NCBI GenBank assembly: GCA_046497275.1
Contig: JAWOFX010000054.1
Span: 3,880-67,879 of the forward strand
Direction: 5' to 3'
Length of the DNA: 64,000 nt
Source of the DNA: Promethearchaeia archaeon
GTDB taxonomy: Archaea; Asgardarchaeota; Lokiarchaeia; Sigyniarchaeales; SOKP01
Positions 2 through 60,864 of the stretch are shown here, piece after piece; position 1 is the first letter of the stretch; each line of letters starts with the position of its first letter. The translations under genes were made by a program, and so were the position numbers. The notes under the pieces were generated by a model. It worked only from the letters and a program-made list of their open reading frames with translations. It was not told the origin of the DNA and made no database searches.

Positions 2-2524
2 GCTTACTTTCCAAATCCCATTCCAAATGATGGTAGTATTGAATATCCTGTATCTTTAACATGGAATAAAACAGGGACAGATATCGATGATTTTGATTTT
101 AATGTTTCATATTCAATATTAGTATATTCTCAAGAAGATTCTATAGTCAATTATTACGCAGATTATAATGGAGATATTTTATGGACAATAGATTATACGT
201 TAAATTTATTTAATTATAATTGGAATTTTACAGAATTGTGGTTTCTCTATCCCTCTTATCATGACAATATTAGCTTGATAACTCCTAGTACGGGAACAGA
301 AAATGTATTAGACCAAACACTAGGTGAAAGTACTTTAAACGAAAATCCAAGTCTTGATAAGCTTATAATACCCTATAATTTATCTAATTTTAGTGGTAAA
401 TATCAACTTAATCTAACTAGCTATAATGCTCTTAATGAGATTCATAGCTACCTCTATTATCAAGGAAATCTATTAGAAACATCAGGGTTTATGTATGGAG
501 ATACTATTAAAGCAGGAGTTGATATTTCTGGACCTAATATTTTCTCCCCTGATGGAGGAACCGCGCAATATACCTTTTATAACCCCAATCAATCTATAAA
601 TGATTCATTTAGCGATTCTACTGGAACTTTGTCTTCTGATAAAACTATACTTAATTTTGATTTTAATAATAAAACACTTTTATTTGTTGATAAGAATGCC
701 GAATATGGTACTTATTATCTCGGAATGTTCTGGGAAAATGGGAGTTTAATTGGTATTAATAATGTTCCAATTTATATCGAATATTATGATTTATCTTTCA
801 GTGATGTGGTAATAAAGGAATTGGAGAATAGAATTTTGATAGAAGATATAACAAGATTTGATGATATTAAGGAAAACTACTATTATTATTTCTTAGGAGC
901 ATCCATAAATAAAACAGATCAGTTTCCTCAAAACTTTTATGCAATTACTCTTGAAGGTATTGATCAACACTTTTCCTATGAAATCTCTGGAACAAATATA
1001 GATCTTGAATTTAACGATTTCCTCCAAAATGAATCAATTTTAAACCCAAGTGAAGAGATTAATTTTAAAATTTCCATGAAAAATAATAATCCAATCATAA
1101 AAGTTGAAGATGTTAAAGTTTCAGTTAAATTAGTATCTCCAATTAATGATAATTGGATTATGACTCTAGGCAATTCCTCATCTCAAACTTTAGAAATATT
1201 AGGAGATCCTAATGGTGGAAATCAGAAAGAGTTCTTACTATCTCTTCAGATGCCTGATATTAATCCTGATGGAATTTGGAAAGGATATAATTCTCCCATT
1301 AGGCTCGGCGGCGCAAAAACAATAGTGACAGTCTATATTGATAATGAACCGATATATACTTATAATTCACCTGAATATTCATTATTAGTAAATAAAACAG
1401 ATGATGAATTTGAAGGATATGTTTTATCCTTATCAGAAACACTTGAAGGCACCTCAACTAGCACAGCAATTAGAATTCCTAGAGATAAGTGTATCTATGC
1501 ACCAGATAAGACAAATATTCTAATAAATATACAAGACTATAACCATATTAGCTCATATAAACTATTTAATAATTCATATTTATTTAATAAATCCAGTAGA
1601 TTTGAAGATATATCCACTAGCCCAGATCCTCCTATAAAAGGAGAATCCTTCAATCTCAGTTCTAAATTAATTAGTGAATTTGGACAAATTATATCAGGAG
1701 AAGTTGTCAATTGTGAATATTATAATGGAACAAATTGGAGAGAGGTTGATGACTCCCCACAAACCACAGATGTAGATGGAATCTCTATTTTCGAAATAGA
1801 TACAAATGATGTAACGGTTGAAGATGATAAAATTTTATTCCGTTTATCTTGGGCAGGCTCGGAAGATATATTAAATAGAACTCAAGAATTTAATATTACT
1901 CTATTTGCTTATAAAAATGAGCTTACGATTAACGCAAGAATTAATAATCCTCCTATATATAGAAACGCAGATAAACTCTTGGATATAACATTAATTAACA
2001 CTGGAAATTCTAATCTCAATATCTCAAGCATTATATTAACATTTTCGGGTATCAACCCTTCCTATGAAATAATGCAACAAGACATCTATAAACTAGAGAG
2101 ATTAAAACCTGGGATTTCCACATTAATTATTTTTAAAATCCGTTTTAAAGCAATACCAAGTGATACTTTAACTATAAATATTTCTGTTACTGCTAATAAC
2201 ATAAATACTCAAGAAACTATTGTTTCAGAAAAGAGTATTTCTGAAAGCGTGATTAATAGTTCTATCTTCCAGAATCTGAGGAATTTTCTTCCGATTATCA
2301 TTCTTTCTCTTTTAGGATTAATTATTGGCCTGTTATTATGGTACTCTTATATTCTAAAACGGCGGATAGAAACTCCTGTTGCAAAACCTGCTCCAAAGAA
2401 AAAGCGGAGGGGAGTCTATAAAAAAGTTTCTGAATTAAAGAAAGAAACACCTGAGAAAGAGGAAGAAGCCGAAGAGAAAGAAAAAACTGATTTAGATTCC
2501 TTATTAGAAGAAGAAGGAATATAG
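2..2524 (+). CDS. Large cell-surface (S-layer/adhesin-like) protein with C-terminal membrane anchor; 5' end lies outside the window
   Basis: The frame is open from the window edge (AYFPNPIPNDGSIEYPVSLTWNK... runs into the TTG at 236). Many N-x-S/T sequons and an Asn/Ser/Thr-rich sequence. Single C-terminal TM helix (IIILSLLGLIIGLLLWYSYIL), then a Lys/Arg-rich and a Glu-rich tail. No specific family recognised. Confidence 0.6.
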   Translation, partial: AYFPNPIPNDGSIEYPVSLTWNKTGTDIDDFDFNVSYSILVYSQEDSIVNYYADYNGDILWTIDYTLNLFNYNWNFTELWFLYPSYHDNISLITPSTGTENVLDQTLGESTLNENPSLDKLIIPYNLSNFSGKYQLNLTSYNALNEIHSYLYYQGNLLETSGFMYGDTIKAGVDISGPNIFSPDGGTAQYTFYNPNQSINDSFSDSTGTLSSDKTILNFDFNNKTLLFVDKNAEYGTYYLGMFWENGSLIGINNVPIYIEYYDLSFSDVVIKELENRILIEDITRFDDIKENYYYYFLGASINKTDQFPQNFYAITLEGIDQHFSYEISGTNIDLEFNDFLQNESILNPSEEINFKISMKNNNPIIKVEDVKVSVKLVSPINDNWIMTLGNSSSQTLEILGDPNGGNQKEFLLSLQMPDINPDGIWKGYNSPIRLGGAKTIVTVYIDNEPIYTYNSPEYSLLVNKTDDEFEGYVLSLSETLEGTSTSTAIRIPRDKCIYAPDKTNILINIQDYNHISSYKLFNNSYLFNKSSRFEDISTSPDPPIKGESFNLSSKLISEFGQIISGEVVNCEYYNGTNWREVDDSPQTTDVDGISIFEIDTNDVTVEDDKILFRLSWAGSEDILNRTQEFNITLFAYKNELTINARINNPPIYRNADKLLDITLINTGNSNLNISSIILTFSGINPSYEIMQQDIYKLERLKPGISTLIIFKIRFKAIPSDTLTINISVTANNINTQETIVSEKSISESVINSSIFQNLRNFLPIIILSLLGLIIGLLLWYSYILKRRIETPVAKPAPKKKRRGVYKKVSELKKETPEKEEEAEEKEKTDLDSLLEEEGI

Positions 2525-2588: not shown

Positions 2589-2939
2589 TTATAGATTGGA
2601 AATTGAAATCAAATTCCTTTTTAAAAGTCCTAATGAAGCTCTGCCATCTACTCCAGCAAGAGCAATAAGTACAACCTGTTCAGACCCAACGAGAATAGCA
2701 AAACCATCCTCTAATTCGATTGTAATGTTTCTTACACTTCCTTTTCCAGTGTCTTGACCTAAAGTATTAGAATCATTTAAAATTTTTGTACAAGCTTTAG
2801 CAATTTTGCTATGGTTCATCTCAATTAATGTCTGCCCGACAATTACATTTCCCTCTTGATCTGCAGCAATTAAACCTTCACATTCGGGAACTAGATCCAT
2901 CAATTGTGCTAATTTTGGTTCAATGTCTTTTTTACTCAT
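2589..2939 (-). CDS. Roadblock/LC7 (MglB-like) domain protein
   Basis: 116 aa. The pattern ...GLIAADQEGNVIVGQ...ITIELEDGFAILVGSEQVVLIALAG... is typical of the Roadblock/LC7 alpha-beta-alpha sandwich. Confidence 0.75.
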   Translation of the reverse strand: MSKKDIEPKLAQLMDLVPECEGLIAADQEGNVIVGQTLIEMNHSKIAKACTKILNDSNTLGQDTGKGSVRNITIELEDGFAILVGSEQVVLIALAGVDGRASLGLLKRNLISISNL

Positions 2940-3103
2940 ATTGTTAGAATCCTCTTTTTAACAATTTCTTTAGATAAATAGTGAAAATACTTCTTAAAGT
3001 ATATATATAGAACTTTCTATTAATATTTTTATACTATTTGATACTCAATTTAAAATTCTCCTTTTAGAAATAAGAAACGAATGGAGAAGAAAAATTCGAA
3101 CCT

Positions 3104-3388
3104 TTATTTTAAGATTATGAGAATTAATTGCTCTTCCAATGCAATCATTATTTCTCCTTTTGATGTTTCTAAACGAATAAATTGCATTGATCCTTCCTTC
3201 AATGCATCCACGACTTGCTTTGCTTTGCCTATTAAGGATGTTATGTATGCTGAAACTTGTTCTGTCATATCCATATCAAGATTAGATTTGATTGGTAAAC
3301 CACTGGTGTCTGTAATTATAACTCCTCGTACACCCTCTTTTTCTTCAAAGCGCCTTATTATCTGCTTGACTTGATTGATGTCTATCAA
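3104..3388 (-). CDS. Roadblock/LC7 (MglB-like) domain protein
   Basis: 94 aa, TTG start. GVRGVIITDTSGLPIKSN...IRLETSKGEIMIALEEQLILIILK matches the dynein-light-chain Roadblock/LC7 pattern. Confidence 0.8.
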   Translation of the reverse strand: MIDINQVKQIIRRFEEKEGVRGVIITDTSGLPIKSNLDMDMTEQVSAYITSLIGKAKQVVDALKEGSMQFIRLETSKGEIMIALEEQLILIILK

Positions 3389-5726: not shown

Positions 5727-6482
5727 ATGAATGTTGGTGGAATCGTGGATCTTTCCACTAAAGATATCCCAGGAAAAGCGTGTATGGTAATATTCACAAT
5801 AGGGTGCAATTTTAGATGTGATTTTTGCCACAATAAACATTTACTTATGAAAGATGCTGGAAGGGAATACTCAACCAAAGAACTTTTAGCATTAGTAAAA
5901 AATAACTTTTTAATTACTAGTGTGAGCGTCACTGGAGGGGAACCAACTCTACAAACAGATCTTATTGAGTTTTGTAAAGAGGTTAAAAAATTAGAAAAAT
6001 TCGTGAGTATAGATACTAATGGTTCTAATCCTGTTATAATTGAAACATTAATTCCTTATATTGATAGGATTGCGGTAGACTTAAAAAGTCCATTAATAAG
6101 AGAGAGATATAAAAATATTACTCATATCGATATTGATCCCTCTATTATAGAGAAGACTATTAAAATAATTAATCAGAATAAAAATGTTGATTTTGAAATA
6201 CGGACGACCTATGTAAAAAATCTTTTGGTCCAAAACGATATTCATCAAATAATTCAATATTTAAATAAGATTCGCTTTACTGGAACGTTCGTTCTCCAGC
6301 AATATCAATATTCTGAAGGAGTGGGTGAGGAATTCAAGGATAAATTTCAGAAACCAGAGCATACCTTATTGTTAGATATATTGCAACAATATTTAGACGA
6401 AGATTTACCTTTCAAAATATATATTAGAGATGAGATAATAGGTTATTCGGAAATTCATGAAATTTTTTCTAAATTACTTTAA
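5727..6482 (+). CDS. Radical SAM activating enzyme, NrdG-like (class III RNR activase family)
   Basis: N-terminus GGIVDLSTKDIPGKACMVIFTIGCNFRCDFCHN (CxxxCxxC) and VTGGEPTL. No nrdD in the window. Confidence 0.7.
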   Translation: MNVGGIVDLSTKDIPGKACMVIFTIGCNFRCDFCHNKHLLMKDAGREYSTKELLALVKNNFLITSVSVTGGEPTLQTDLIEFCKEVKKLEKFVSIDTNGSNPVIIETLIPYIDRIAVDLKSPLIRERYKNITHIDIDPSIIEKTIKIINQNKNVDFEIRTTYVKNLLVQNDIHQIIQYLNKIRFTGTFVLQQYQYSEGVGEEFKDKFQKPEHTLLLDILQQYLDEDLPFKIYIRDEIIGYSEIHEIFSKLL

Positions 6483-6589
6483 AAAACAACTAATAATAAT
6501 TAGGTTGCTTTATAGATTATAAATCTAAAATAAATGAATAATTATGCAAAATTCAAAAATTATCTAACTTTTTCTATATTGAATTAATT

Positions 6590-7723
6590 ATGAATGAAGA
6601 TAAAATCTTAGATCAAATTGAGTCTTGTATAGATTGTATGAGTTGTTTGGAAGTATGTGATACTTATTTAGCAACAGATAATGATTTGCAATCTCCCAAT
6701 GGACGTTTAAAAATTGCGGAGAAAGTTTTTACCAATCAAAAGATTTCTGAAGAAGAAAGATTTGGTATATACACATGCACTCTATGTTCTCTTTGCGATA
6801 CTGTATGTACTCAAGAAATTTCGATTTCCGAAATAATTCACGCAACGAAGATTAAACTATCTAAAACAGAAATGGGTCCATATGAAATTCACAATAAAAT
6901 TTCTAAAGGTATTATTGAGAAAGATAATTCTGTGAATGGTAAACCGGAGGAAAGGTTGGATTGGTTGCCTGAAAAATATAAGGATTTAGAGAATTTCGAT
7001 AATCGAAAATCAGATACATTACTCTTTCTTGGATGCATGTCATCCTTTAAAGTTAAAGAGAGTGCGAGTGCATCTTATCAAATTTTAAAAAAAGCTGATT
7101 ATGAATTCAAAATATTAAAGAACGAGCCTTGTTGTGGAGAGTATCTATATTCTGCAGGAAAATTAGAAGAAGCAAAAAAATATTTCAAAAAAACATATGA
7201 GATTCTAAAACAAAATGGAATAAAGAATATAATAGTGACATGTGCTGGGTGTTTATATGCTTTCAATAATGTATATCCTCAATATATTGAAGGATATGAT
7301 ATTGAAGTTCGTCATGTCGTTCAAGTTATTTATGATTTGGTAAAAGAGGGAAAAATTAAATTAAAAAAATTGGATGGAAAAGAAATTACATATCATGATG
7401 CATGTCGAATGGGGAGAAAGATAAAAGGTATGGATATATATGATGAGCCAAGAGAATTATTAAACCAAATAGGGATTAACATTCAAGAATTACCTAAAAA
7501 TAGGGTAGAGAGTCCTTGTTGTGGAGCAGGTTCTGGAATTAGAGGTGTTGCTAAAGATCTTTGTATAGATATAGGAACTTCGGTATTAAACAATTTAGAT
7601 AATGGAGAGATCGTTTCAAGTTGTCCTTTATGTATTTTCAATTATCGATATGTTAATTATAAAAATCAATTAGATAAGAGTATAAAATATATTACTGAAT
7701 ACATTCTCGATGCTATGGAATAA
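6590..7723 (+). CDS. Fe-S oxidoreductase, HdrD/GlcF/GlpC-like (2x[4Fe-4S] ferredoxin domain plus two CCG domains)
   Basis: CIDCMSCLEVC and CTLCSLCDTVC ferredoxin motifs, then two Cys-rich CCG motifs (EPCCGEYLY, SPCCGAGSG). Confidence 0.75.
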   Translation: MNEDKILDQIESCIDCMSCLEVCDTYLATDNDLQSPNGRLKIAEKVFTNQKISEEERFGIYTCTLCSLCDTVCTQEISISEIIHATKIKLSKTEMGPYEIHNKISKGIIEKDNSVNGKPEERLDWLPEKYKDLENFDNRKSDTLLFLGCMSSFKVKESASASYQILKKADYEFKILKNEPCCGEYLYSAGKLEEAKKYFKKTYEILKQNGIKNIIVTCAGCLYAFNNVYPQYIEGYDIEVRHVVQVIYDLVKEGKIKLKKLDGKEITYHDACRMGRKIKGMDIYDEPRELLNQIGINIQELPKNRVESPCCGAGSGIRGVAKDLCIDIGTSVLNNLDNGEIVSSCPLCIFNYRYVNYKNQLDKSIKYITEYILDAME

Positions 7724-11559: not shown

Positions 11560-12267
11560 CTATTTCAGCCTAAAGTAAAGTCTTCTGTTATCTTTTCCCT
11601 TATTCACGCTTTTGATAAAAAAGATTTTTCCAATTTCTTGTAAATTTCTAACATGTGTTCCGGCATCTGCTTGTTCATCAATCTCCCCAATTTTAACAAT
11701 TCTAACGTGCTTAATATTATCTGGTAATCCCATTGATAATCGTGTTATTTCAGATCTTTTCATTGCTTCCTCTCTGGAAATAGTAAAAATCTCAATCGGA
11801 ATTTTCTTTTTTATAATCTTATTAGCTTTATCTATTGTTTGTTTAAATTTATTTGGATCATAATCCTCCATAGAAAAATCTATTCTTGTATGGTCTAAAC
11901 CAATTTGATTACCTGTAATCATCGCTCCATAATTATCATGCACTAAAGCTGATAATAAATGACTAGCTGTATGATAGCGCATAAATGTATATCTTCGTTC
12001 CCAGTCTAATTCACATTCTACTAAATCACCAGGTATTAACCCTTCTTTATCTACTTCATGACTAATTTTTCCAGAAAATTTCCCTACATAAACAACTTTA
12101 TACTTTTCACCGTTTTTCCGTATAATACCTTTATCGTAGGGTTGTCCACCTCCTTTCGGATAAAAAGCGGTTTCTGAAAGAATAATAAATTTTCCTTCTG
12201 AAACAGAAATAACTTTAGATTTCCAAGTTTTTAAATATGAATCTTCTAAATAAAGAGGAGATTCCAT
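11560..12267 (-). CDS. alaX: Alanyl-tRNA editing protein AlaX (AlaX-M type)
   Basis: N-terminal beta-barrel region, HTASHLL zinc motif, and a ...AGTHV... second motif. 235 aa. Confidence 0.8.
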   Translation of the reverse strand: MESPLYLEDSYLKTWKSKVISVSEGKFIILSETAFYPKGGGQPYDKGIIRKNGEKYKVVYVGKFSGKISHEVDKEGLIPGDLVECELDWERRYTFMRYHTASHLLSALVHDNYGAMITGNQIGLDHTRIDFSMEDYDPNKFKQTIDKANKIIKKKIPIEIFTISREEAMKRSEITRLSMGLPDNIKHVRIVKIGEIDEQADAGTHVRNLQEIGKIFFIKSVNKGKDNRRLYFRLK

Positions 12268-12383: not shown

Positions 12384-12692
12384 TTAATCAAGACCAACCA
12401 AAAGTTTAAATTCATCTGGTTCTGTTTTCTCGTCAATAGCTGAAATCTTATAATCAATTGCAATTCTATCTCTAAGATTAGATGATTTCCTCGCTGCAAT
12501 AAATTTTAAACGGGGTTCTGCTTCTGAGCCATGCCATAACCAGAGAGTTTTTGATAATTGATCAAGAAAAATTAAAACTGAATTTGAATTTAATAAATCA
12601 ATCAAAAGTTTTCCTTCAGGATTAATCTCTATAAATTCTTCTGATTCCAAATCTAATTTATAGACAACATAATCCTTTAGTTCTTCTTCCAA
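12384..12692 (-). CDS. Single-domain gelsolin/cofilin-like protein
   Basis: 102 aa. LLNSNSVLIFLDQLSKTLWLWHGSEAEPRLKFIAARKSSNL...EKTEPDEFKLLVG follows the gelsolin-repeat pattern (LnSgDvfILD..g..iyvW.G..as..ek..A....EG.Ep.eF). Confidence 0.55.
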   Translation of the reverse strand: MEEELKDYVVYKLDLESEEFIEINPEGKLLIDLLNSNSVLIFLDQLSKTLWLWHGSEAEPRLKFIAARKSSNLRDRIAIDYKISAIDEKTEPDEFKLLVGLD

Positions 12693-12941
12693 ATTTCAAC
12701 CCCTTACTTTTTATTTGTTTAAATTGAATATCTAACATTAATATTATATGATTATAACATTTATTATAATATTTACCAATATAACTCGAAAATTTCAATT
12801 ATAGAAGAATCTAAAACTAGATTTCACATCTTTTTATAAATAAAATTATGTTAATTATGTTTTAATAGAAATTATTAAATAATTAATGCAAATTTTACTT
12901 AATTAAAAAAAACAGAACTTATAAAATAGAGGAGAATTTGT

Positions 12942-16567: not shown

Positions 16568-17391
16568 ATGAAGGAAATTTTAAAAGAGAAAGAAGTAGTT
16601 AATAATACACCTCATCCTAACACAAAAAATTCATTAAAAAGAGATCTAAAAAGATTAGGATTAATTAAGGAAGATATCATAATTTTACATACTTCCTTAA
16701 GTAAAATTGGATGGACTATAGGTGGATCTGTAACTGCTATTAATGCTCTGATGGAAGTTTTAACATTAAATGGAGCAATTGTAATGCCGACCTTTACCTC
16801 TGATAATAGTGAACCATCGAGATGGGAAAATCCTTCTGTTCCCCAAGATTGGTGGCCTTCAATAAGAAAACACATGCCCCCATATAATCTAGAATATATA
16901 CTCCAACGAGAGGTGTTGGGAGAATTCCAGAAGTTTTTAGAAAATTCCCAAATGTAATTAGGAGTGATCATCCAATTTCTTCTTTTGCTGCGTGGGGTAA
17001 ACATGCGAAAGAAATAATTGAGAATCACAAGCTTGAAGCCGATTTAGGAGAAGGATCACCACTTTCCAAAATTTATGAGTTAAATGGAAAAATCTTATTA
17101 TTGGGTGTTGGTCATTCTAATAATACGTCCCTTCATCTTGCAGAATATAGAAGTAACTATAATGGAAAAGAATTTAGAGATACAGGTTCGGCCATGAATG
17201 TTGATAATAAACGAAAATGGGTGATATGGAGGGAGTTAAATCATAATAGTGATGATTTTAATAAGATTGGGAACGATTATGAACGGAAAATAGGGTATAT
17301 ACCTAAGAAAGTTGGATTAGCAACCTCAAGATTGTTAAATCAGAGAGATTTAATTGATTTTGCTGTGGAATGGATGAGAAAAAATCGATAA
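16568..17391 (+). pseudogene. Aminoglycoside N3-acetyltransferase (AAC(3)) family gene interrupted by a frameshift
   Basis: Frame 2 (16568-16957) encodes LKRDLKRLGL...ILHTSLSKIGW..GG...MPTFT. Frame 1, open from 16888, continues [37 protein letters not shown]...[17 protein letters not shown]. Together they make one collinear AAC(3)-family protein. The shift is most likely in the atatata run at 16894-16900. Confidence 0.7.
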
Positions 17392-17672: not shown

Positions 17673-19838
17673 TTGGAGGTAAATTTAATGTCGAAACCTG
17701 ATAGAGAAATTGGAAATTTTACTTTAAAAGCAATTGCACTTGATACTGGAGGGACTATGACGGATGCATTTATTATTGATGATAAAGGGAATTTTTCAGT
17801 AGGGAAAGCGGTTACCACTCCAGAAGAAGAATCTAAAGGTATATTAAACTCTATTAATGATTCTTTAATTCCTTGGAAAATTACCATTGATCAAGCTGGT
17901 GGGGGTGTTGATGCATTGGTATATTCAGGTACAGCTATGTTGAACCGTTTATTAGAAAGAGAAGGAAATTCTAATATTGGAGTTATAATAAATGCAGGTT
18001 TTGAAGATTTACATAGATTAGGAAGAGCTCTTCAGTGTTGGATATGGCTTGATTATGGAGGACGTCTACATGCTCGTGAACATGAACATCCTGAACCTCT
18101 AATATCTCATAAGAATATCAAAGGTGTGAGAGGGCGAATTAATTTTTGGGGTGAAGAACTCATTCCCTTATATAAAGACGAAGCAGAAAGGGCTGTGAAT
18201 GAATTATTAGATATGGGAGTTGATAGTATATGTGTATGTTTATTGTGTTCTTATATGAATCCTCGACAAGAAAAGGCAGTCGCGAGAATCGCTAAAAAAG
18301 CAATGAAAAAACGAGATATTGATATACCTATAGTCTTATCTAGTGAGCATAATCCGGTAAGAGGAGAAACCCCTCGATTGAACGCATTAATAATTGAACA
18401 ATATGCTGCTGAGCCTTCTCGAGCTCAAATGATTGATATTGCAGAAAAGCTTAAAAATAAGGGAGTAACAGCACCATTAAGGATATTAACTTCATATGGA
18501 GGAACGATTTCTCCTTATCATAAAACTCTTATTCCTACAATGGTTTCAGGACCAATAGGAGGGATGATTGGGACAAAGTTTCTCGCTGAGACCTATAATA
18601 TTACTAATTTAGTTTCTTCAGATGTGGGTGGAACAAGCTTCGATGTAGGTATTTTAAGTCAACGATATATACCTACTAAATGGGAATCTAGTCTAGGAAG
18701 ATTTATATTAAATATTCCAATGATCGCATTAGATTCAATTGGAGCAGGTACGGGAATGTATGTAAGATATAATGATATTTCAGGCAGATTAGAATTTGGA
18801 CCTGAAAGCGCTGGTCATTTAATAGGTGTATGTAATGAGAATTCAGGAGTAGAAATTGTTACAATGACAGATTGTAGTTTAATTTTAGGCTATATAAATC
18901 CAGAATACTTTTTAGGGGGTAGAATTAAATTAAATAAAGAGAGAGCCTATGAATACATTGAAGAGCAGCTAGCAGAGCCTTTAAATGCTGATGCATATAG
19001 TACTGCACGAGGTTCTTTAGATTTAATCGAAATTAATATGAGAAACCACCTTAATGGAATGATTCAAGGATTAGGGTTTAGACCAGAAAATTATACTTTA
19101 GTATCTTTCGGAGGAGGGGGACCATTACATGTGGCAGGATATGCAAGTGGTCTGAAATTTGAAAATATAATGATACCAGAATGGGCTCCTGCATTTAGTG
19201 CATTTGGCTGTGCGTGTGCCGATCATTCTTACCGTCATGAAAAATCCGTTGATTTAATAATCACTCCTTCAGGAGATCTAAATGCTGCTGTCGCGATGAT
19301 GCTTAATGCTACATGGTCAGAACTCAAGAAAGATATTATAAAGGAATTTAAAAAAGAAGGAAGGGATCCAGAGGAGATGGTATTTCAACCGTCCTTACGG
19401 ATTCAATACTTAGGTATGTTAGATGATTTAGAGGTTGAATCTCCTTTTGAGGTTGTTAAAGAAGAAGATCTATCAGTCCTTACAAAAAAATATGATGATC
19501 TTTTCGAACAAATATTTAGAAGAGGTACCAAAAGCCCAGAACTGGGTTATCATATAACCAAAGCTGTTGCAACAGGCATAGTTCCTGTACCCAAACCTAA
19601 ACTACCAGATGATCAAGAGATGGGTAAAACTCCTCCTGAAAAAGCATCGAAAGGATATAGGGATATCTTTTGGGAAGGAGGATGGCATGAGGCTTCCCTT
19701 TGGGAAATGAGTCTGCTGCAGTGTGGTAATATAATTGATGGTCCATCAGTTATTGAAGCACCTGCTACTACCCTTCTTGTGCCTCCAGGATACCGTGTTA
19801 AACTAGATAATCATAGAATTTTTCATATGGAGGTGTGA
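17673..19838 (+). CDS. acxA: Hydantoinase A/oxoprolinase family, acetone-carboxylase beta-subunit-like
   Basis: 721 aa. Actin-fold ATPase-type motifs (LDTGGTMTD, SDVGGTSFDVG, SFGGGGPLH). GGAGGT RBS. First gene of a three-gene operon with B- and gamma-type subunits. Confidence 0.75.
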   Translation: MEVNLMSKPDREIGNFTLKAIALDTGGTMTDAFIIDDKGNFSVGKAVTTPEEESKGILNSINDSLIPWKITIDQAGGGVDALVYSGTAMLNRLLEREGNSNIGVIINAGFEDLHRLGRALQCWIWLDYGGRLHAREHEHPEPLISHKNIKGVRGRINFWGEELIPLYKDEAERAVNELLDMGVDSICVCLLCSYMNPRQEKAVARIAKKAMKKRDIDIPIVLSSEHNPVRGETPRLNALIIEQYAAEPSRAQMIDIAEKLKNKGVTAPLRILTSYGGTISPYHKTLIPTMVSGPIGGMIGTKFLAETYNITNLVSSDVGGTSFDVGILSQRYIPTKWESSLGRFILNIPMIALDSIGAGTGMYVRYNDISGRLEFGPESAGHLIGVCNENSGVEIVTMTDCSLILGYINPEYFLGGRIKLNKERAYEYIEEQLAEPLNADAYSTARGSLDLIEINMRNHLNGMIQGLGFRPENYTLVSFGGGGPLHVAGYASGLKFENIMIPEWAPAFSAFGCACADHSYRHEKSVDLIITPSGDLNAAVAMMLNATWSELKKDIIKEFKKEGRDPEEMVFQPSLRIQYLGMLDDLEVESPFEVVKEEDLSVLTKKYDDLFEQIFRRGTKSPELGYHITKAVATGIVPVPKPKLPDDQEMGKTPPEKASKGYRDIFWEGGWHEASLWEMSLLQCGNIIDGPSVIEAPATTLLVPPGYRVKLDNHRIFHMEV

Positions 19839-22057
19839 AAATGGATAAAAACGAAATTGGTTGGGATGGAAAAAGCTTAATAGAAATGTTTGAAGAAAGT
19901 GAAAAATTAATCAATGAAACGGGAAAATATTATGGCATAGATATATTAAGTTTGAAAGAGAGGAACCCATTTAGATATGAGAGATCATATGCGAGCTTAA
20001 GGGGTGCGTTAGTGTCTGCAAGGGAGACAGCATTACATATTGCTGCTTCGCCTATTGTGAAAGAAATTGGTGAATTATGTTTTGCTTTATATACTCCAGA
20101 AGGCGACTCCATAGTAGTTTCAACGGGTATACTCGTTCACGTTCATACTATGAGTGAAGCGATAAAATTTATGATACAACAGGATTATGAAGATGACCCT
20201 GGGATAAATCCCGGAGATATTTTTTTAAATAATGATCCAGAATGCGGAAATGTTCATACTACAGATGTACAAACTATCATACCCATTTTCTGGAGGGATG
20301 AATTAATTGGATGGGCTGGTGGGGTCACACATCAAATCGATTCAGGGGGTATTACTCCGGGTCATGATCTAGTTGCAGCAATTCAAAGATTTGATGATGG
20401 AGTATATTATACGTGCCGAAAAATTGGATCAAATGATAAAATTTGGAAAGATCATATGATCAATGCTCGCCGATCGGTAAGAACACCATTATACTGGGAA
20501 CTTGATGAGAAATGCAGATTAGCCGGTAATCTTATGATTAGAGATGCAGTACTAGATTTTATAGAGAAAGAAGGAATTGATTATTATAAACAGTTTATAA
20601 GAGAAGCAATTGAAGAAGGAAGAAGAATCGTCTTAAAAAGAGTAAAAGAGCGATTAATACCCGGTAGATATCGAGCAGCATCTTTTTTTGATGTACCATT
20701 CAAAGAAGAAGCGTGGCAACCTAAAGCTAAAGTAGATAAAGTAACAAATGAGCCAATTGAAATAATTATTGATAAAGATGGCAGACTTTCAATAGATTTT
20801 GAAGGGGCTAGTGGACCAGGTCCAAATCCTATGAATTGTGGAAAAGGAGCAATGGAAGGAGGTCAATGGGTTTTACTAACTCAAATATTAATTTACGGAG
20901 ATAAAGTTAATGATGGAGCATATTTTGCAGTTGAAAAAAATTATCCCTTAGGAACTTGGTGTAATCCAGGCGATCCATATTTAAGTTATCAAAGCCCTTG
21001 GGGAAATCTTATTCCAGCCTATACTGGGATGATGAAATGCCTTTCTTTTGGATTATACTCTCGTGGATATCGTGAAGAGGTTGTCCCAGGGTATGGATTT
21101 ACGGGTGATGCTATACAAGGCGGTGGGATTTACTCGAGTGGGCCATTAAAGGGAGATAGATGGGCTTTATCTACTTTTGAGATTAGTGGGCAAGGTCTAG
21201 GTGCTAGTGCTGTGAGAGATGGGCTGGACTGGGGATATGCGATGTGGAATCCTGAATCAGATTTAGGAGATGTTGAAACATGGGAGTTATTTCAAGGAGG
21301 GATTCCTTATTTATCTCGAAAAGTAAAGCCTAACACGGCGGGACATGGTAAATATAGAGGTGGGGCAAATTATGCTGGTGTAGCGATGATTGCAAATTCA
21401 GAAGATGTGGACTTTTTTGGAGCGCGAGAGGGAATGGTATTCCATGGATCAGGAGGAATGCATGGCGGTTATCCCCATGGAACAGGATATAGATTAATTG
21501 CTAAAAACACAAATTTTAAAGAAATTATTGATAACCAAGAAGAATATCCTTTAGGAGATCCGGATCCAAGTAACGGTGAATTTGAAAGATTATTAAAAGG
21601 TGATATCATTAGAAAACCTTATTCTTCAATATACCCTGTGACATTAGAAAATTATGACTTAGTTCACTATGCTTTAAGTGGAGGACCTGGATATGGTGAT
21701 CCTTTGGAAAGACGTCTTGATAAGGTACGACAAGATTTGAATGATGGAATATATACTGATGATATTGTTTATAATGTCTATGGGGTAAAAGCGGGATATA
21801 ATGAACATGAAAAAAGCTGGAGTATTAATGATGAGAAAACAGAACAAAGACGTGAGGATTTGAGAAATGAACGAAAAGAGAGATCAATGACCTATGAAGA
21901 ATTTTGGAAGTATGAAAGAGATAAGATAACAGAAAACAAATTGACTGAACCGGTAAAAAGAATGTATTCTGAGAGTTTAAACCTTTCAGAAAAATGGAAA
22001 AGATTATTCATCGAATATTGGGAATTACCAGAAGATTTCAAATTGGAGGTGAAATGA
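19835..22057 (+). CDS. acxB: Hydantoinase B/oxoprolinase family, acetone-carboxylase alpha-subunit-like
   Basis: 740 aa. Start overlaps the upstream stop (GTGTGA; alternative ATG at 19841). Long hydantoinase_B-type sequence (GGVTHQIDSGG, GGANYAG...). Confidence 0.75.
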   Translation: MKMDKNEIGWDGKSLIEMFEESEKLINETGKYYGIDILSLKERNPFRYERSYASLRGALVSARETALHIAASPIVKEIGELCFALYTPEGDSIVVSTGILVHVHTMSEAIKFMIQQDYEDDPGINPGDIFLNNDPECGNVHTTDVQTIIPIFWRDELIGWAGGVTHQIDSGGITPGHDLVAAIQRFDDGVYYTCRKIGSNDKIWKDHMINARRSVRTPLYWELDEKCRLAGNLMIRDAVLDFIEKEGIDYYKQFIREAIEEGRRIVLKRVKERLIPGRYRAASFFDVPFKEEAWQPKAKVDKVTNEPIEIIIDKDGRLSIDFEGASGPGPNPMNCGKGAMEGGQWVLLTQILIYGDKVNDGAYFAVEKNYPLGTWCNPGDPYLSYQSPWGNLIPAYTGMMKCLSFGLYSRGYREEVVPGYGFTGDAIQGGGIYSSGPLKGDRWALSTFEISGQGLGASAVRDGLDWGYAMWNPESDLGDVETWELFQGGIPYLSRKVKPNTAGHGKYRGGANYAGVAMIANSEDVDFFGAREGMVFHGSGGMHGGYPHGTGYRLIAKNTNFKEIIDNQEEYPLGDPDPSNGEFERLLKGDIIRKPYSSIYPVTLENYDLVHYALSGGPGYGDPLERRLDKVRQDLNDGIYTDDIVYNVYGVKAGYNEHEKSWSINDEKTEQRREDLRNERKERSMTYEEFWKYERDKITENKLTEPVKRMYSESLNLSEKWKRLFIEYWELPEDFKLEVK

Positions 22058-22058
22058 A

Positions 22059-22556
22059 TTGCCGAAATATGATAAAAGAACATTAGAGAGATTGATCGAA
22101 GGTGATTTAAAATGGGAAGAATTAAAACCTATTATTTCAGGGGATAAGGATACAAATAGATTTGATATGATCTTAGAAATACTTCAAGAAAAAGTTCCGT
22201 GGGAAGAAAAAATCATTTTACCGCTTCATGAACACCTTTATATTGTAGCGAAAGATGGTAATAGGATTGTTAAATGTGATTGCGGATATGAATTTGGAGA
22301 TTACAAGGAAAATTGGAAGAAAAAATGCCGAATCCATGTCAGAGATAAGATTGAAGATATAGAAGAACTCTATCCAAAAGATATGGGGTGCGATCCAGAT
22401 TGGATGGAAATTAGAGAATATTATTGTCCGGGATGTTTCACTTTATTAGAGGCAGAAAGCGTCCCTCCAGGATATCCTTTAGTTTTCAACTTCTTACCAG
22501 AAATAGATGTGTTTTATAAAGAATGTTTAGGAAAAAAGGCTCCAGATAAAGAATAA
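22059..22556 (+). CDS. acxC: Acetone carboxylase gamma-subunit family protein
   Basis: 165 aa. ILQEKVPWEEKIILPL, CDCGYEF...W, IREYYCPGCFTLLEAESVPPGYPLVFNFLPEIDVFY closely follow the AcxC pattern as I remember it (ILQERMPWDDKIILPL ... IREYFCPECGTL ... F.PDIEGFY). Confidence 0.85.
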   Translation: MPKYDKRTLERLIEGDLKWEELKPIISGDKDTNRFDMILEILQEKVPWEEKIILPLHEHLYIVAKDGNRIVKCDCGYEFGDYKENWKKKCRIHVRDKIEDIEELYPKDMGCDPDWMEIREYYCPGCFTLLEAESVPPGYPLVFNFLPEIDVFYKECLGKKAPDKE

Positions 22557-24633: not shown

Positions 24634-25032
24634 ATGGAAGAAAACAATAAAGAAGAAACAACAATAAAGGAGTATATTGGTCCCGGATTGGGATTAATTG
24701 GAGGGATAATGCTTCTTTTGGTTTCTATTCTCTTTTTCTCAGAATATAGTCTTATATTAGAATTTTATCCTTTATTAATAGTTCCAGAAATAATCACTCC
24801 TATTTTGGCAATTAGTGCCATTATTTCTTCATTATTGACTATGAATAGAAGGAGCTATGGAAAATTTATTCTTTTTTTTGTAGGAATAGTTGCTTGTATC
24901 ACCAATTTCATCCCAATTCAAACTATACCTATTGATGGTGGAATGTTGAATATAACAATAAGCGGAAACTTTTTTATTATTGATCCTCTCCTTGTTGCTG
25001 TGGGGGGTCTTTTTAGCCTGTTTTTTAATTAA
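24634..25032 (+). CDS. Small membrane protein (about 4 TM)
   Basis: 132 aa, hydrophobic. No family recognised. Confidence 0.45.
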   Translation: MEENNKEETTIKEYIGPGLGLIGGIMLLLVSILFFSEYSLILEFYPLLIVPEIITPILAISAIISSLLTMNRRSYGKFILFFVGIVACITNFIPIQTIPIDGGMLNITISGNFFIIDPLLVAVGGLFSLFFN

Positions 25033-30678: not shown

Positions 30679-31164
30679 TTATATTCTAGAATCTGATACA
30701 GCAGGTGGCTCAGGAGGTTTATATTTTTCATAGAGTTCATTCATTAATCTATAAAAATCTTTTCTTCTATTTATGTAATGATTTTTATCTTCTTCTTTAT
30801 TTCGATCGACAGAAAGTTTCCATTTTGTTACCTTTGGTTTATCACCTTTCAGTACTAAATTTCCATCTTTATCGCGTTTGTACATCTGAATTTTGATAAC
30901 ACCTTTTTCGGGTTTCGCTGGAATAATTTCATCAATATCACCCCATCTAACCCATTTGCTCTTTCCCATACTATACATTGATGTGCTGAAGCCCGCTTTT
31001 ATTCTCCAAGAGAATCCATTTTCTCCTACAACAATTAAACCATTTTCTTTATCTAATCCGCATTTTGATGTAAGTATAGGTTCACCAACTGGATCTGATT
31101 CCATTATTTTTTCATACATCCCTTGTCGATCGGGAGATAATTCCCATCCATCTAAAAACGGCAT
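30679..31164 (-). CDS. Hypothetical protein (beta-rich core plus C-terminal helix; possibly PH-like fold)
   Basis: 161 aa. No motif recognised. The fold suggestion comes only from the beta-strand pattern followed by the helix RRKDFYRLMNELYEKY. Confidence 0.3.
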   Translation of the reverse strand: MPFLDGWELSPDRQGMYEKIMESDPVGEPILTSKCGLDKENGLIVVGENGFSWRIKAGFSTSMYSMGKSKWVRWGDIDEIIPAKPEKGVIKIQMYKRDKDGNLVLKGDKPKVTKWKLSVDRNKEEDKNHYINRRKDFYRLMNELYEKYKPPEPPAVSDSRI

Positions 31165-42557: not shown

Positions 42558-44024
42558 CGGTGGTCGGTTAGCCGACATTATTTGTGAATTATCCCACCAC
42601 CCCCATGGATTTTTGCTCCACTCTAAGAAACAACCCTCTAAGGACATCTTGGTTCTGGTTAAGATTCCAGCTGCGAGAGCTCATTTTTCGAGTTCGCTCA
42701 AGTTGAATGCGCTTCCTATTCATTTTCCAAGAGTTATAAAGGAGTATTCGTGCAAGCATATCGAGATATCTTACGTTATCGTGGTTAGATCGCCATCGCC
42801 GATTAATCCGATTTAAGTCGGAAAATCCAGTTTCGATAAGCCATCGACGGCGATAAAAGAGGGATGTGCGGGATGCCCACGAGCTTTCCTTCCCTTTTGG
42901 TTTCTCGGTTGTCATTATCGTAAAAACCCTATGATATGCATCCTTCAAGGAGAGAATCCCTCTCCGAACATCTCTTTTAATACCTCGGAGAGAGAAGCCT
43001 TGTTTTGCCCGTATTATGAGGTTAACATCGCATTTAAATTGTCGCTTTGCTGCGGTAGCAGTAGAAAATGTATACCTTCGCACTCGTCCCGCTTTTCCCT
43101 CCAAGTATTCCTTAATAAATTGTTTAATTTTTTTATATTGTTTCGCAGGCATGAGTACATTGCCGCCTTTTTGTTTTATATCGTCTATCAATTCAGCTCT
43201 ATAAAACTCACGATCCATTAACACATATTTTAATTCAAATCCCAATTCGAGAAGATGAGCCAAAAAGGTTTTGATTATTGGAATCTTAGATTGTCCATTT
43301 GCCACATGCTCCAATCCTGCATAGAGATGAACATTCCGGGAAAGTAATGAAAAACCGAGATAATGACGCATCTTTTTGGTTCCCTTTTGTCGATTAGTAC
43401 CCTTAATCATTTTATCCTCACGAGACCCGAAATATGGATGTTCTGTAAAATCAATTAATACGTTCACCTTTTTTGAGATGAGTTTTGACTTGTATGCTTC
43501 TTTTAATTGTTCATCAAGACATTCACGTAAAAGTTTGCGCGCTTTCTTGATGCCAATTCCGCGTAAATACTTGTTCACTTCGGTTTGGTGTGGAACATAT
43601 CTCTTTTTACGCCCGTCTGAAAAGATTTTCCGTCTTCCCTTTTTATGACTCAGTATGTACGCATTAAGCTGCTCGCTGGTGTCGTGTATGGATCTACCTA
43701 TAATTTCTGAAAAGAAGAATACTCTTAAAAAGTCTGAATCCTCATATTTAGCGTTTTTTGCCCTTTTGACCCGCCATGTGCGAGAGATGACAACATCACA
43801 AAACTTTTTATAAAATGAGAGAATATTATCATTAGAAAGAAGTGATTTGATTCCTAACTTTTGAATAGAAGTAGGAAATATTTCTTGTAATCGCATACAT
43901 GAATATAATCACTTCTTTCTTTTTAATTTTACGGTTATCCATCAGAGGAATAAAATCCTAAAAAATAATGTTTCATAATACCAATTGAGAGGCAGTATTT
44001 CATAGGATGGGCCAGAGACCATCG
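42558..44024 (-). mobile_element. IS4-family-like insertion sequence (boundaries approximate)
   Basis: Visibly higher G+C than its flanks. Single DDE transposase gene. Candidate imperfect terminal inverted repeats cggtggtc (42558-42565) / gaccatcg (44017-44024). No target-site duplication identified. Confidence 0.55.
42589..43896 (-). CDS. DDE transposase, IS4 family-like
   Basis: 435 aa. LIDFTEHPYFG (D), YVLMDREFY (D), YRRRWLIETGFSDLNR (Y-x2-R-x3-E signature). Confidence 0.75.
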   Translation of the reverse strand: MRLQEIFPTSIQKLGIKSLLSNDNILSFYKKFCDVVISRTWRVKRAKNAKYEDSDFLRVFFFSEIIGRSIHDTSEQLNAYILSHKKGRRKIFSDGRKKRYVPHQTEVNKYLRGIGIKKARKLLRECLDEQLKEAYKSKLISKKVNVLIDFTEHPYFGSREDKMIKGTNRQKGTKKMRHYLGFSLLSRNVHLYAGLEHVANGQSKIPIIKTFLAHLLELGFELKYVLMDREFYRAELIDDIKQKGGNVLMPAKQYKKIKQFIKEYLEGKAGRVRRYTFSTATAAKRQFKCDVNLIIRAKQGFSLRGIKRDVRRGILSLKDAYHRVFTIMTTEKPKGKESSWASRTSLFYRRRWLIETGFSDLNRINRRWRSNHDNVRYLDMLARILLYNSWKMNRKRIQLERTRKMSSRSWNLNQNQDVLRGLFLRVEQKSMGVVG

Positions 44025-54019: not shown

Positions 54020-54628
54020 TCAAATAATAAAGAATCCATAGGAAAAATTTATAAAACCGATGGAAATTAGACTTCTTATTAATCCTAAAGATGAAAGACC
54101 TAATGTAATTAAACTTAAAATAAGACCTAATATTAACAAATTGCTACCCTTTTCTTCGTCAATATCGTATGGGGTCAATCTTCTTGCTTTACTGCTATAT
54201 GATTTTGAAATTATCGCAAAAATCAATCCAAGGACAGAAAATAACAAGGAAAAACCTGAAAATATTATTCCTAAAGCTGGGATTTCTGGTAAGATATATC
54301 CATACATCCAATTTCTGTAAAGTTTGATACCACTCAATCCAATACCTATCCCTGATAGCACAACTGATGCTATTGCATAAGACAAACATTTCCTACCAAG
54401 GCTGGAGGCTTGAATTTCTTCTTTCTTTGGTATAGTATTATAATCTTTTGGTTTTATTTCGTGATGTTCTTTTTTTTCATATTTATCAAATTCTTTCGAT
54501 TGAGTTTCCTTAATCTTATAAGGATATTCCTCATGGCTAAAGATTTCTGTTCCACAATTTTGACAATATCTTTGATAGTCACTTTCTAATTTAGAACCAC
54601 ATATAGGACAATACATTTTACTGTTCAC
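54020..54628 (-). CDS. Zinc-ribbon membrane protein (family member 1 of 3)
   Basis: N-terminal MYCPICGSKLESDYQRYCQNCGTEI, charged linker, C-terminal multi-TM domain. Confidence 0.6.
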   Translation of the reverse strand: MNSKMYCPICGSKLESDYQRYCQNCGTEIFSHEEYPYKIKETQSKEFDKYEKKEHHEIKPKDYNTIPKKEEIQASSLGRKCLSYAIASVVLSGIGIGLSGIKLYRNWMYGYILPEIPALGIIFSGFSLLFSVLGLIFAIISKSYSSKARRLTPYDIDEEKGSNLLILGLILSLITLGLSSLGLIRSLISIGFINFSYGFFII

Positions 54629-54887
54629 ATTATTTTATCAAATGGTATATTAAATATTATTTAAGTTTACGACTTATTAATCTTACTCCTTCATAAAGCT
54701 TTTAAGCATAATGGAAATCAATTAATTTATAACCCCACTTTTTTATAATCATATGGTTCTACTAAGTCAAAAGTAGTTTTATTCCAATTCTTTTAAATTT
54801 ATAATTGCTCTATGTTTTTCAGATGTAAAAAAATATAGTAATATTAAGGTAAAAAAATAAAAAAGATAATTTTTGTATTAAAAAATC

Positions 54888-55523
54888 TTATATAAATGGA
54901 AATAATGTACCTAAGTCAATCAATACAATAATAGCTAATATTATTCCAATAAGGGCTAGTGCTAATGCCATTACATTCATTATAATACCAAATATAGCAA
55001 GAGTACTTCCTACTTGTTCAATTACATTTTTTGGTTCTGATTTATTCGCTTCCTTACTATAACCTCTAGAGGATGATGCAAATATCAATCCAGGAATAGA
55101 TAATCCCAGAGAAATACTTGAAAGAATTATACCTAAAATAGGACGTGGAGAACTGCTTCTAATAATTAAAACAGTAAATCTACCTACTCCAAATCCAATT
55201 GAAACTCCAAAAAATGCTAAAGATACAATTGCAAATATTAAACATTTTTTAGAATATTCACCCGCCTCACCTTCTTCTTTCGGTGATTCAGCACTATAAT
55301 CGACAGTTTTTGCTTTTGGTTCCTCAGGTTGAGTAATTGGCTCTTCTAGTTCAGTTTCCTTAGCGGGTGGTTTATCATCTTCAATAGGAGACGGCTCTGG
55401 TTCATCAGTTACAATTGGCGTTTCGCTGGGAATAACAATTTCAGATCCACAATTCTGACAAAATTTTTGATTTTCGCTTTCTAATTCCGCTCCACACATT
55501 GGACAATACATACGAATATTCAC
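54888..55523 (-). CDS. Zinc-ribbon membrane protein (family member 2 of 3)
   Basis: MYCPMCGAELESENQKFCQNCGSEI, Pro/Glu-rich linker, TM domain. Upstream region conserved with member 3. Confidence 0.6.
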   Translation of the reverse strand: MNIRMYCPMCGAELESENQKFCQNCGSEIVIPSETPIVTDEPEPSPIEDDKPPAKETELEEPITQPEEPKAKTVDYSAESPKEEGEAGEYSKKCLIFAIVSLAFFGVSIGFGVGRFTVLIIRSSSPRPILGIILSSISLGLSIPGLIFASSSRGYSKEANKSEPKNVIEQVGSTLAIFGIIMNVMALALALIGIILAIIVLIDLGTLFPFI

Positions 55524-55697
55524 ACTATTTTTTTAAAATTCTGATTAATTATAATATAATTTAGATGTTAATCTATTTAATTTTACGTGTAATTGTAATT
55601 TTTAAGACAATATTAGATCCCTAAAATAGAGAAAAATACTTTTTTGTTAATTTAGATTTGTAAAAAAAGAAAAGAAAAAATTTTTTATTTAAAAAAA

Positions 55698-56315
55698 TTA
55701 AGGGAATATGCCTAAACCTATAAGTATACTAATTACAGCAAGTATAGAAAGCCCTGTAACTACAACTGTCATTATTATCCCTATTATATTCAATACCAAA
55801 CCCACTATAGCAAGAGAACTTCCAACTTTTTCAACTGTGTTATCTGGATCTAACTCTGATGCTTTTTTACTAATTTTTCTCGATGAAGTAGCAAATATTA
55901 AGCCAATTATAGATAATATTAAAGTTATAACTGTAAAAACTAATCCTAAAATCGGATAATATGACCCACCTGAAGTAATCCTCTCTCCTCTGAATGATAT
56001 CATTCCAGAATATATTCCAAAAATTATAATCGAAATTATAGCGTATGCAAGACATTTACCTGCATAATTGCTTGCTAAATCCTTTTCTTCTGGTTTTTGA
56101 GAACTATAATCTTTAGTTGTTATTTCAGATTCTTTATCTTCTATAGATGGTTCTTCAGGCTTAGTTTCCTTAATTTTTGGTGCTGGTTCTTCAGTCGACG
56201 ATGGTTCAGTTTTTTCAATTTGCGTTTCACTGGGGTTAATAATTTCAGATCCGCAGTTCTGACAGAATTTTTGATCTTCACTTTCTAATTTCGCTCCACA
56301 CATTGGACAATACAT
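55698..56315 (-). CDS. Zinc-ribbon membrane protein (family member 3 of 3)
   Basis: MYCPMCGAKLESEDQKFCQNCGSEI, Pro/Glu-rich linker, TM domain. Confidence 0.6.
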   Translation of the reverse strand: MYCPMCGAKLESEDQKFCQNCGSEIINPSETQIEKTEPSSTEEPAPKIKETKPEEPSIEDKESEITTKDYSSQKPEEKDLASNYAGKCLAYAIISIIIFGIYSGMISFRGERITSGGSYYPILGLVFTVITLILSIIGLIFATSSRKISKKASELDPDNTVEKVGSSLAIVGLVLNIIGIIMTVVVTGLSILAVISILIGLGIFP

Positions 56316-60300: not shown

Positions 60301-60864
60301 GTGAATAGTCAAAATTATGATCATTTTTTTAGATGTACAAAATGTCAAAAAAGAGGAGCGATATTTTTATTAAAAGTTAATAATAATCAGATCATTATAA
60401 AACAGAGATGTCCTCAGCACGGGGCAAGAAGTTTTAAAGTTCCATTAATAAAATTAGCGGAATATATAGAGTTAATTAAAGATTCAATCTTTCGATGCTA
60501 TAAGTGCGGGGAAAAAACAACTTTACAGAATATCAAATTTAGTGGACCATGGGCATTATTAAAAGGGTATTGTCCCACTCACAAAGATGGATTACCTGTC
60601 CAAAAGATTTGGAGTGCGATCTATATTACAGCGACTGAAATAGATATTGGCAACATTAAGAATATTATAATTTCTGAAAATCAAGAAGAATATCAACATA
60701 AAGAAAATAATATCGATAATTATCATTCTAAATCTCTAGGAAATACTAAGAATGTTTCAAATCCAGAATCCAATATCCCAGAAATAAAGTTTTGTGCGAA
60801 TTGCGGTACGAAAATAAGGGGTGAAGAACGTTATTGCTCTGTATGTGGTTCTAAAATTCGTTAA
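60301..60864 (+). CDS. Multi-zinc-finger protein (two CxxC...CPxH units plus C-terminal zinc ribbon), paralogue 1
   Basis: GTG start. FRCTKCQKRG...RCPQHG; FRCYKCGEK...YCPTHK; FCANCGTKIRGEERYCSVCGSKI. Confidence 0.55.
   Translation: MNSQNYDHFFRCTKCQKRGAIFLLKVNNNQIIIKQRCPQHGARSFKVPLIKLAEYIELIKDSIFRCYKCGEKTTLQNIKFSGPWALLKGYCPTHKDGLPVQKIWSAIYITATEIDIGNIKNIIISENQEEYQHKENNIDNYHSKSLGNTKNVSNPESNIPEIKFCANCGTKIRGEERYCSVCGSKIR

Follow-up and report, generated by a model that had tools for sequence, protein, structure and literature searches.

On the minus strand of the window (the whole 64 kb stretch of DNA analysed here; GC content ~28%) lies a 102-aa ORF that encodes a protein labelled by NCBI as 'hypothetical protein ACQERB_04860 [Promethearchaeati archaeon]'. 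The ORF was found where the sequence-only reading had placed it, with the motifs quoted for it (Table 1). Its translation is MEEELKDYVVYKLDLESEEFIEINPEGKLLIDLLNSNSVLIFLDQLSKTLWLWHGSEAEPRLKFIAARKSSNLRDRIAIDYKISAIDEKTEPDEFKLLVGLD; it begins with TTG (12690-12692), ends with TAA (12384-12386) and has no internal Met. The TTG start is credible because orthologous contigs carry ATG at the same codon, as is the case in homologues that are 73-78% identical. A putative Shine-Dalgarno-like sequence precedes the start, and GGAGGG stands equally far from the start in the orthologue on contig L005.

The identical protein is also present in the NCBI MAG records MFO7795562.1 and MGM0468123.1 and in one Logan assembly. 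Six homologues of 102 aa share 73-96% identity with the ORF, and an exhaustive HMMER search with seven close sequences as query returned 262 homologues at E<=1e-3 (66 of them at E<=1e-10). Comparison with the orthologues of L005 and L006 gave near-saturated synonymous divergence (pS 0.63-0.75), a pN of 0.15-0.18 and a dN/dS of ~0.04-0.15. Conservation and dN/dS rule out a spurious ORF at this position. We conclude that the ORF is a genuine, conserved gene under purifying selection.

The host is an Asgard archaeon. The protein and four named neighbours (AlaX-like, rhomboid, acetate-CoA ligase and Roadblock proteins) are listed by NCBI under Promethearchaeati, Promethearchaeia or Candidatus Lokiarchaeota archaeon. 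In the NCBI lineage, the class Promethearchaeia falls within Promethearchaeota, an Asgard phylum. The source of P0003, a homologue with 78% identity, is likewise given as 'Candidatus Lokiarchaeota archaeon'. These source names confirm the Asgard origin that had been proposed from the letters, in part on account of Roadblock genes. Two such genes are present in tandem. An overlapping plus-strand ORF (3081-3374) was also considered as a Roadblock gene and rejected: it has no similarity to the neighbouring Roadblock protein and is a shadow of the second minus-strand gene.

Table 1. Coordinates of the gelsolin-domain gene, its sequence features and its neighbours. Positions are those of the window, or of the contig where a contig (L005, L006) is named.
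Feature	Location	Strand	Basis or remarks
Gelsolin-domain gene (ProGel-type, 102 aa)	12384..12692	-	ORF list, sequence, identical proteins elsewhere, purifying selection, homology, fold
Ser38, position of the type II calcium-site Asp	12579..12581	-	Alignments; ligand identity from gelsolin knowledge
Asp44, 'D' of the D...W.G motif	12561..12563	-	End of strand E39-44; ungapped against the Asp of ProGel 'FID'
Trp53-His54-Gly55, WxG signature	12528..12536	-	End of strand E49-54; aligns with ProGel LWRG and 2DGel3 VWRG
Long helix, residues 60-77, PRLKFIAARKSSNLRDRI	12462..12515	-	Secondary structure of both models
Shine-Dalgarno-like AAGGGGTTGA	12696..12705	-	Read from the sequence; 4-13 nt 5' of TTG; putative function
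AT-rich spacer, 249 bp, between the divergent gelsolin and rhomboid genes	12693..12941		Sequence
Rhomboid intramembrane serine protease, 225 aa	12942..13619	+	PF01694, 9e-29; divergent neighbour
AlaX-like editing protein, directly downstream of the gelsolin gene	11560-12267		
Roadblock/LC7 gene	2589-2939	-	PF03259, 5e-6
Roadblock/LC7 gene, tandem with 2589-2939	3104-3388	-	PF03259, 6e-17; also LAMTOR5, 1e-10
Rhomboid gene in relative L005	5201-5845		
Rhomboid genes in relative L006	4213-4875 and 5200-5847		
GAF-PAS kinase and response regulator pair, L005	6573-9103		
GAF-PAS kinase and response regulator pair, L006	6596-9124		

The gelsolin gene and the rhomboid gene are arranged divergently, as had been described. 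Both promoters presumably lie inside the spacer between them, which has the TATA-like sequences TTTAAA and ATATAATA on the gelsolin strand. It had further been stated that no actin or profilin gene is nearby. This held for the window: neither was found among its main ORFs of at least 90 aa, compared with Pfam or looked up in the gene table of NCBI contig L001. Two unannotated ORFs of profilin size (24634-25032 and 30679-31164) were examined as profilin candidates and dropped, as they gave only noise against PDB sequences. A six-frame scan with the family HMM detected no further gelsolin domain elsewhere in the window, and an Rfam scan of the whole 64 kb gave no family at gathering score, hence no tRNA, rRNA or other known RNA.

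Several other features of the window were recorded. Beside the Roadblock pair, a 762-aa protein (236-2524, plus strand) is rich in Asn, Ser and Thr, and its C-terminal part has a hydrophobic segment and then a Lys/Glu-rich tail. It has zero Pfam matches and looks surface-anchored. Two plus-strand ORFs (16568-16957 and 17101-17391), which cover profile positions 1-71 and 139-232, make up one split aminoglycoside 3-N-acetyltransferase-like gene (PF02522). The split is called identically in contig L001, and the gene may be disrupted or a pseudogene. A trio of hydantoinase A, hydantoinase B and acetone-carboxylase-gamma-like genes (17673-22556, plus strand) has a GC content of 0.36-0.37, against ~0.28 in the rest.

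The region 31341-53880 holds an enzyme cluster with B12-binding radical SAM (three ORFs), radical SAM/SPASM (two ORFs) and two peptidase U32-like proteins, together with an Orf2-type aromatic prenyltransferase, two LuxE-like acyl-protein synthetases, a sulfotransferase and a CDP-alcohol phosphatidyltransferase. A DDE transposase (42589-43896; local GC 0.36) interrupts the cluster, which could serve lipid or secondary-metabolite modification. Finally, five paralogous small zinc-ribbon proteins occur in two runs. In the run of three (54020-56315, minus strand) the zinc ribbon is N-terminal and the proteins match membrane-protein families weakly; in the run of two (60301-61886, plus strand) the ribbon is C-terminal.

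The product of the 102-aa ORF had been described as a single-domain gelsolin/cofilin-like protein with a hallmark gelsolin core. As a single sequence it scored 12.4 bits against the Pfam-A Gelsolin model PF00626 (E=0.14, residues 24-74), below the gathering score of 21 bits, which is an operational threshold and not a defining property. Besides this sub-threshold match, no Pfam-A family matched the ORF, with no ADF-H/cofilin match even at E<=10, and the NCBIfam scan of the ORF returned zero families. Searched alone against PDB sequences with phmmer, the ORF matched the Thorarchaeota (Thor) ProGel chain 7c2f_B (94 aa, 'Gelsolin-like domain-containing protein') at E=6.2e-7, in an alignment that spans residues 26-101 and is gap-free apart from one position. 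Domains of Thor 2DGel3 followed at E=2.7e-4 and 3.6e-3.

A family profile (A2) was built from 36 single-domain homologues. It matched 40 PDB sequences at E 4e-22 to 1e-2, and all 40 belong to the gelsolin superfamily. The E-values were 4e-22 for villin, 1.9e-15 for Thor 2DGel3, 4.7e-14 for Thor ProGel, 1.1e-13 for Loki 2DGel, ~1e-10 for human and horse gelsolin, 2e-10 for CapG and 1.3e-9 for Heimdall 2DGel; adseverin and fragmin were likewise among the matches. The profile search that had been suggested as a check thus gave significant gelsolin matches (4e-22 to 1e-9 against villin, 2DGel, ProGel, gelsolin and CapG). PF00626 itself was reached individually by 9 of the 36 relatives (best E=7e-9). 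Because of the PDB matches of the ORF and of the 36-sequence profile, and because these relatives reach PF00626, we regard homology to gelsolin domains as firmly established at the sequence level despite the single-sequence Pfam failure. The 'hallmark' core was therefore borne out through Asgard relatives and profiles only, and not by the Pfam model alone. The Pfam model misses such sequences, which Asgard-based profiles or fold comparison detect.

Structure prediction, the other check that had been suggested, led to the same superfamily. Two template-free AlphaFold2 models were made, model 1 from 7 sequences (pLDDT 76.2, pTM 0.69) and model 2 from 36 (pLDDT 79.8; its five models range from 68.6 to 79.8). 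Both models contain the elements E8-14, E19-23, H30-33, E39-44, E49-54, H60-77, E82-87 and H93-99. In the predicted topology, two N-terminal strands are followed by a short helix and a beta-hairpin that ends in WxG; after a long helix come a fifth strand and, at the C-terminus, a short helix. Both models thus show the gelsolin alpha/beta sandwich, a mixed beta-sheet between one long and one short helix.

In Foldseek searches of the PDB, the top match of both models was 7c2f_B, the Thor ProGel of a complex with rabbit actin (model 1: E=4.1e-8, TM 0.77/0.88, rmsd 2.1 A; model 2: E=3.2e-8, TM 0.80/0.92, rmsd 1.4 A). Matches at E<=1e-3 numbered 69 for model 1 and 105 for model 2. For both models, the best 50 consisted of gelsolin, villin, adseverin, CapG, fragmin, severin and Asgard ProGel or 2DGel domains only. 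No cofilin, twinfilin or Sec23/24 chain was present in the A2 profile-PDB list or among the best 50 Foldseek matches. The domain envelope covers residues 1-102, and the stop, at residue 103, follows the domain immediately; a WH2-like linker, a second domain and a C-terminal X extension were not found in the 102 aa. Taken together, these data make the window protein almost certainly a gelsolin-fold protein of the ProGel type, and the claim of a single-domain gelsolin was upheld.

The D...WxG motif is present in both the window protein and Thor ProGel, for which, together with 2DGel, a 'DWG' gelsolin motif has been defined (PMC7444086). Among the 36 family members, D44 is found in 31, and W53 and G55 are each found in 35. 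The best-conserved segment of the family alignment is the long helix, with R61, K63, F64, I65-A66-A67 and an invariant R74. In ProGel and in gelsolin G1 the main helix contacts the actin cleft (PMC7444086). The helix of residues 60-77 corresponds to this main helix, and by analogy the window protein would bind actin through it.

The ligands of the type II calcium site are, as we take it, an Asp before the third strand and a Glu seven residues past the WxG glycine (gelsolin G2 D187 and E209). In the alignments these positions are D and E in 2DGel3 domain 2, Loki 2DGel domain 1 and villin V3; they are K and K in ProGel, and S38 and L62 in the window ORF. It is the second D of 'SDD' in 2DGel3 that aligns with S38. 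At position 62, 29 of the 36 relatives have M, K or L and one has E; at position 38, an acidic residue is found in 5 of the 36. Judged by these alignments, both acidic side chains of the type II site are absent from the window protein, as they are from Thor ProGel. Since S38 and L62 replace the calcium ligands, the window protein is predicted to be calcium-independent, like ProGel.

These residues bear on one alternative, namely that the gene encodes a mini-gelsolin under calcium control which, in the manner of 2DGel or eukaryotic gelsolin, caps or severs filaments. Such a protein would belong to the same superfamily, and the family profile scores best on domain 3 of villin, gelsolin and CapG and on 2DGel domains. 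We nevertheless consider it most improbable: the window protein has one domain only and no WH2-like linker, Ser38 and Leu62 stand in place of the type II acidic residues, with Met, Lys or Leu prevailing at position 62, and, according to published work, calcium sites are lacking in single-domain Asgard gelsolins.

The known multi-domain proteins differ in their architecture. The Asgard two-domain gelsolins (Thor 2DGel/2DGel3, 7C2G/7C2H; Loki, 7WHG; Heimdall, 7WHF) have a homologous domain (profile E 1e-9 to 2e-15, fold TM ~0.7), but they combine two domains with a WH2-like linker, type I/II calcium sites and calcium-controlled capping and severing, none of which was found in the window ORF. The repeats of eukaryotic gelsolin, villin, CapG, adseverin and fragmin (PF00626) share the fold and the WxG signature. 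Of these repeats, domain 3 aligns best with the family profile, and the family shares an [IM]-R-D helix motif with domain 2. The eukaryotic proteins differ in having 3-6 repeats and in being calcium-regulated.

The asgardarchaeal 1DGelX (GelX) proteins have one N-terminal gelsolin domain that is ~38-45% identical to the ORF, and many of the 262 homologues are proteins of 250-330 aa with exactly this layout. At their C-terminus they carry an X region, coiled-coil or disordered, that is missing from the window ORF and is thought, from published work, to confer strong severing.

The closest characterized protein is Thor ProGel (PDB 7C2F chain B; Akil et al. 2020, PMC7444086), also a single gelsolin-homology domain of ~94-102 aa from an Asgard archaeon and the best match of the window ORF in both sequence and structure. 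The two are nevertheless only 28-34% identical (33-34% by BLASTP), and the window ORF has ~10 extra N-terminal residues. Within the set of homologues, Thor ProGel is nearest to P0141, P0109 and P0091 and the window ORF to P0007-P0016, which is not a reciprocal relationship. A published tree of these domains lacks resolution. Unlike Thor ProGel, the Loki-type subfamily of the window protein has a strongly conserved R-[ML]-K-F-I-A-A...[IL]-R-D helix, and Thor ProGel has Ser where the subfamily has the invariant Arg74.

ProGel of Thorarchaeota binds actin in the cleft that separates its subdomains 1 and 3 in a cofilin-like manner and has no calcium sites (PMC7444086). Its affinity for rabbit G-actin is very weak (Kd ~337 uM), and it neither severs nor disassembles filaments (PMC7444086). 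At high concentration it co-pellets with F-actin and bundles or anneals it, and when present in mammalian cells it decorates their actin filaments (PMC7444086). ProGels occur in all Asgard phyla, with 2-4 per Loki genome, and their function has been demonstrated for the Thor protein only (PMC9433394). The statement that mini-gelsolins are known from Asgard archaea is in line with this literature. Since ProGels have been published from all these phyla, with two in the closed MK-D1 genome and four in Loki GC14_75 (PMC9433394), a gelsolin of one domain is to be expected in a Lokiarchaeia-type MAG, and the window protein is a further member of the described class.

In the literature ProGel figures as the Asgard 'cofilin', and one may ask whether the window protein is an archaeal counterpart of cofilin/ADF-H, that is, a severing and depolymerising factor. 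ADF/cofilin is a single-domain actin binder of similar size with a related core fold, and ProGel sits on actin in a cofilin-like orientation. The window protein, on the other hand, had no ADF-H match in Pfam at E<=10, and neither the profile-PDB list nor the best 50 Foldseek matches contained a cofilin or twinfilin chain. It has D...WxG (here WHG) rather than the WP motif, the additional helices of cofilin are missing from the models, and ProGel itself neither disassembled nor severed filaments. We therefore regard a cofilin counterpart as very unlikely; of the term 'gelsolin/cofilin-like', the first half stood and the second did not.

The neighbourhood of the gene was compared across 12 loci. 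A rhomboid gene adjoins the gelsolin gene in the close relatives L005-L007 and is absent from this position in the distant loci L003, L004 and L008-L012. The rhomboid of the window is the orthologue of the divergent rhomboid of L006 (84% identical). In L005-L007, a second, ~50% identical rhomboid paralogue lies co-directionally ~153 bp upstream of the gelsolin gene. The paralogues show turnover: the window has the divergent copy only, L005 the co-directional copy only, and L006 and L007 have both. The close relatives keep a block of genes for PadR, a HAAS membrane protein, a coiled-coil protein, rhomboid, gelsolin and, further on, a 470-aa methyltransferase-like protein and OYE. Directly downstream of the gelsolin gene, L005-L007 have a GAF-PAS histidine kinase with a response regulator where the window has AlaX. 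Homologues that are 37-43% identical are found in another conserved setting, with an HGSNAT-like membrane protein, a convergent Ogg-type glycosylase and a PfkB kinase. At none of the 12 loci did an actin, profilin or other cytoskeletal gene adjoin the gelsolin gene.

We reject a functional operon with rhomboid or AlaX as unsupported: the downstream gene varies in the close relatives and the neighbours of distant homologues are entirely different. The gelsolin gene looks stand-alone, and its genomic context is uninformative on function. Two observations were made beside this. The same gelsolin domain occurs inside long proteins, such as P0041 (879 aa, domain at 451-552), which JGI names 'small GTP-binding protein'. 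At L003, a gene whose 350-aa product contains a Ras-like GTPase domain (6314-7366, minus strand) lies directly downstream of the gelsolin gene and convergent to it. Both are hints of a gelsolin-GTPase link in some Asgard lineages.

A gelsolin fold need not mean actin regulation. We know of no actin binding by the gelsolin-like domain of Sec23/24, and the window protein might be a protein-protein or membrane module with another partner, possibly tied to small-GTPase or membrane-protease biology. The only ProGel tested binds actin very weakly, and ProGel was not recovered in a published Lokiactin co-immunoprecipitation from L. ossiferum. The fusion of the domain into larger proteins such as P0041, the Ras-like GTPase gene at L003, the rhomboid gene that relatives keep next door even though its paralogues turn over, and an invariant Arg74 that the subfamily does not have in common with ProGel point in the same direction. 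Against this, every significant match, by sequence or by structure, is to an actin-binding domain of the gelsolin family, and Sec23/24 chains are missing from the profile matches and from the best 50 fold matches. Moreover, distant homologues have no rhomboid gene next door and lie among unrelated housekeeping genes, and no segment is conserved better than the helix that serves actin contact. On balance, a non-actin partner appears rather unlikely.

We consider it probable, by analogy with ProGel, that the partner of the window protein is actin and that the protein acts as a calcium-independent filament side-binder. We infer this partner, the binding site and the activity, and thus a role in actin regulation, from a relative ~28-34% identical whose own affinity for rabbit actin is very weak. 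Counting against this reading are the low identity to ProGel and the non-reciprocal nearest neighbours, the Ser of ProGel at the place of Arg74, the demonstration of ProGel function for Thor only, the weak binding of rabbit actin, the absence of ProGel from the Lokiactin co-immunoprecipitate, the sub-threshold Pfam score and the lack of an adjoining cytoskeletal gene at the 12 loci. As homology and the anatomy of the domain suggest, the protein would use its long helix to bind Lokiactin filaments in a calcium-independent way and would decorate the filament sides. At high local concentration it might bundle or anneal filaments and mildly damp their assembly. Severing or capping would not be expected because the protein has no second domain, no WH2-like linker and no C-terminal X domain.

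A further possibility is that the Loki-type sequences, with their R-[ML]-K-F-I-A-A...[IL]-R-D helix and invariant Arg74, form a distinct and widespread Lokiarchaeia-type subfamily that is non-orthologous to Thor ProGel and has an activity or partner of its own; domains of this subfamily also occur as fusions in long proteins, GTPase-containing ones among them. We hold this to be doubtful. If it were true, the activity could be a G2-like binding to filament sides via the [IM]-R-D helix motif. Alternatively, there could be a non-actin partner tied to membrane or GTPase signalling, with rhomboid kept alongside in the lineage.

Our preferred reading, to which we assign an overall probability of about 0.7, is that the gene encodes a stand-alone Asgard gelsolin domain of the ProGel class from a Promethearchaeia (Lokiarchaeia-type) host that acts as a calcium-independent binder of actin filaments. 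Gelsolin-type proteins, Lokiactin and profilins make up a small toolkit that is thought to regulate the Asgard actin cytoskeleton and is central to ideas on the origin of eukaryotic cell architecture. The window gene adds one sequence to a described class and leaves the picture of this toolkit unchanged. With the present analysis, the annotation 'hypothetical protein' is corrected to ProGel-type gelsolin, and a conserved Loki-type subfamily with 262 relatives is defined.
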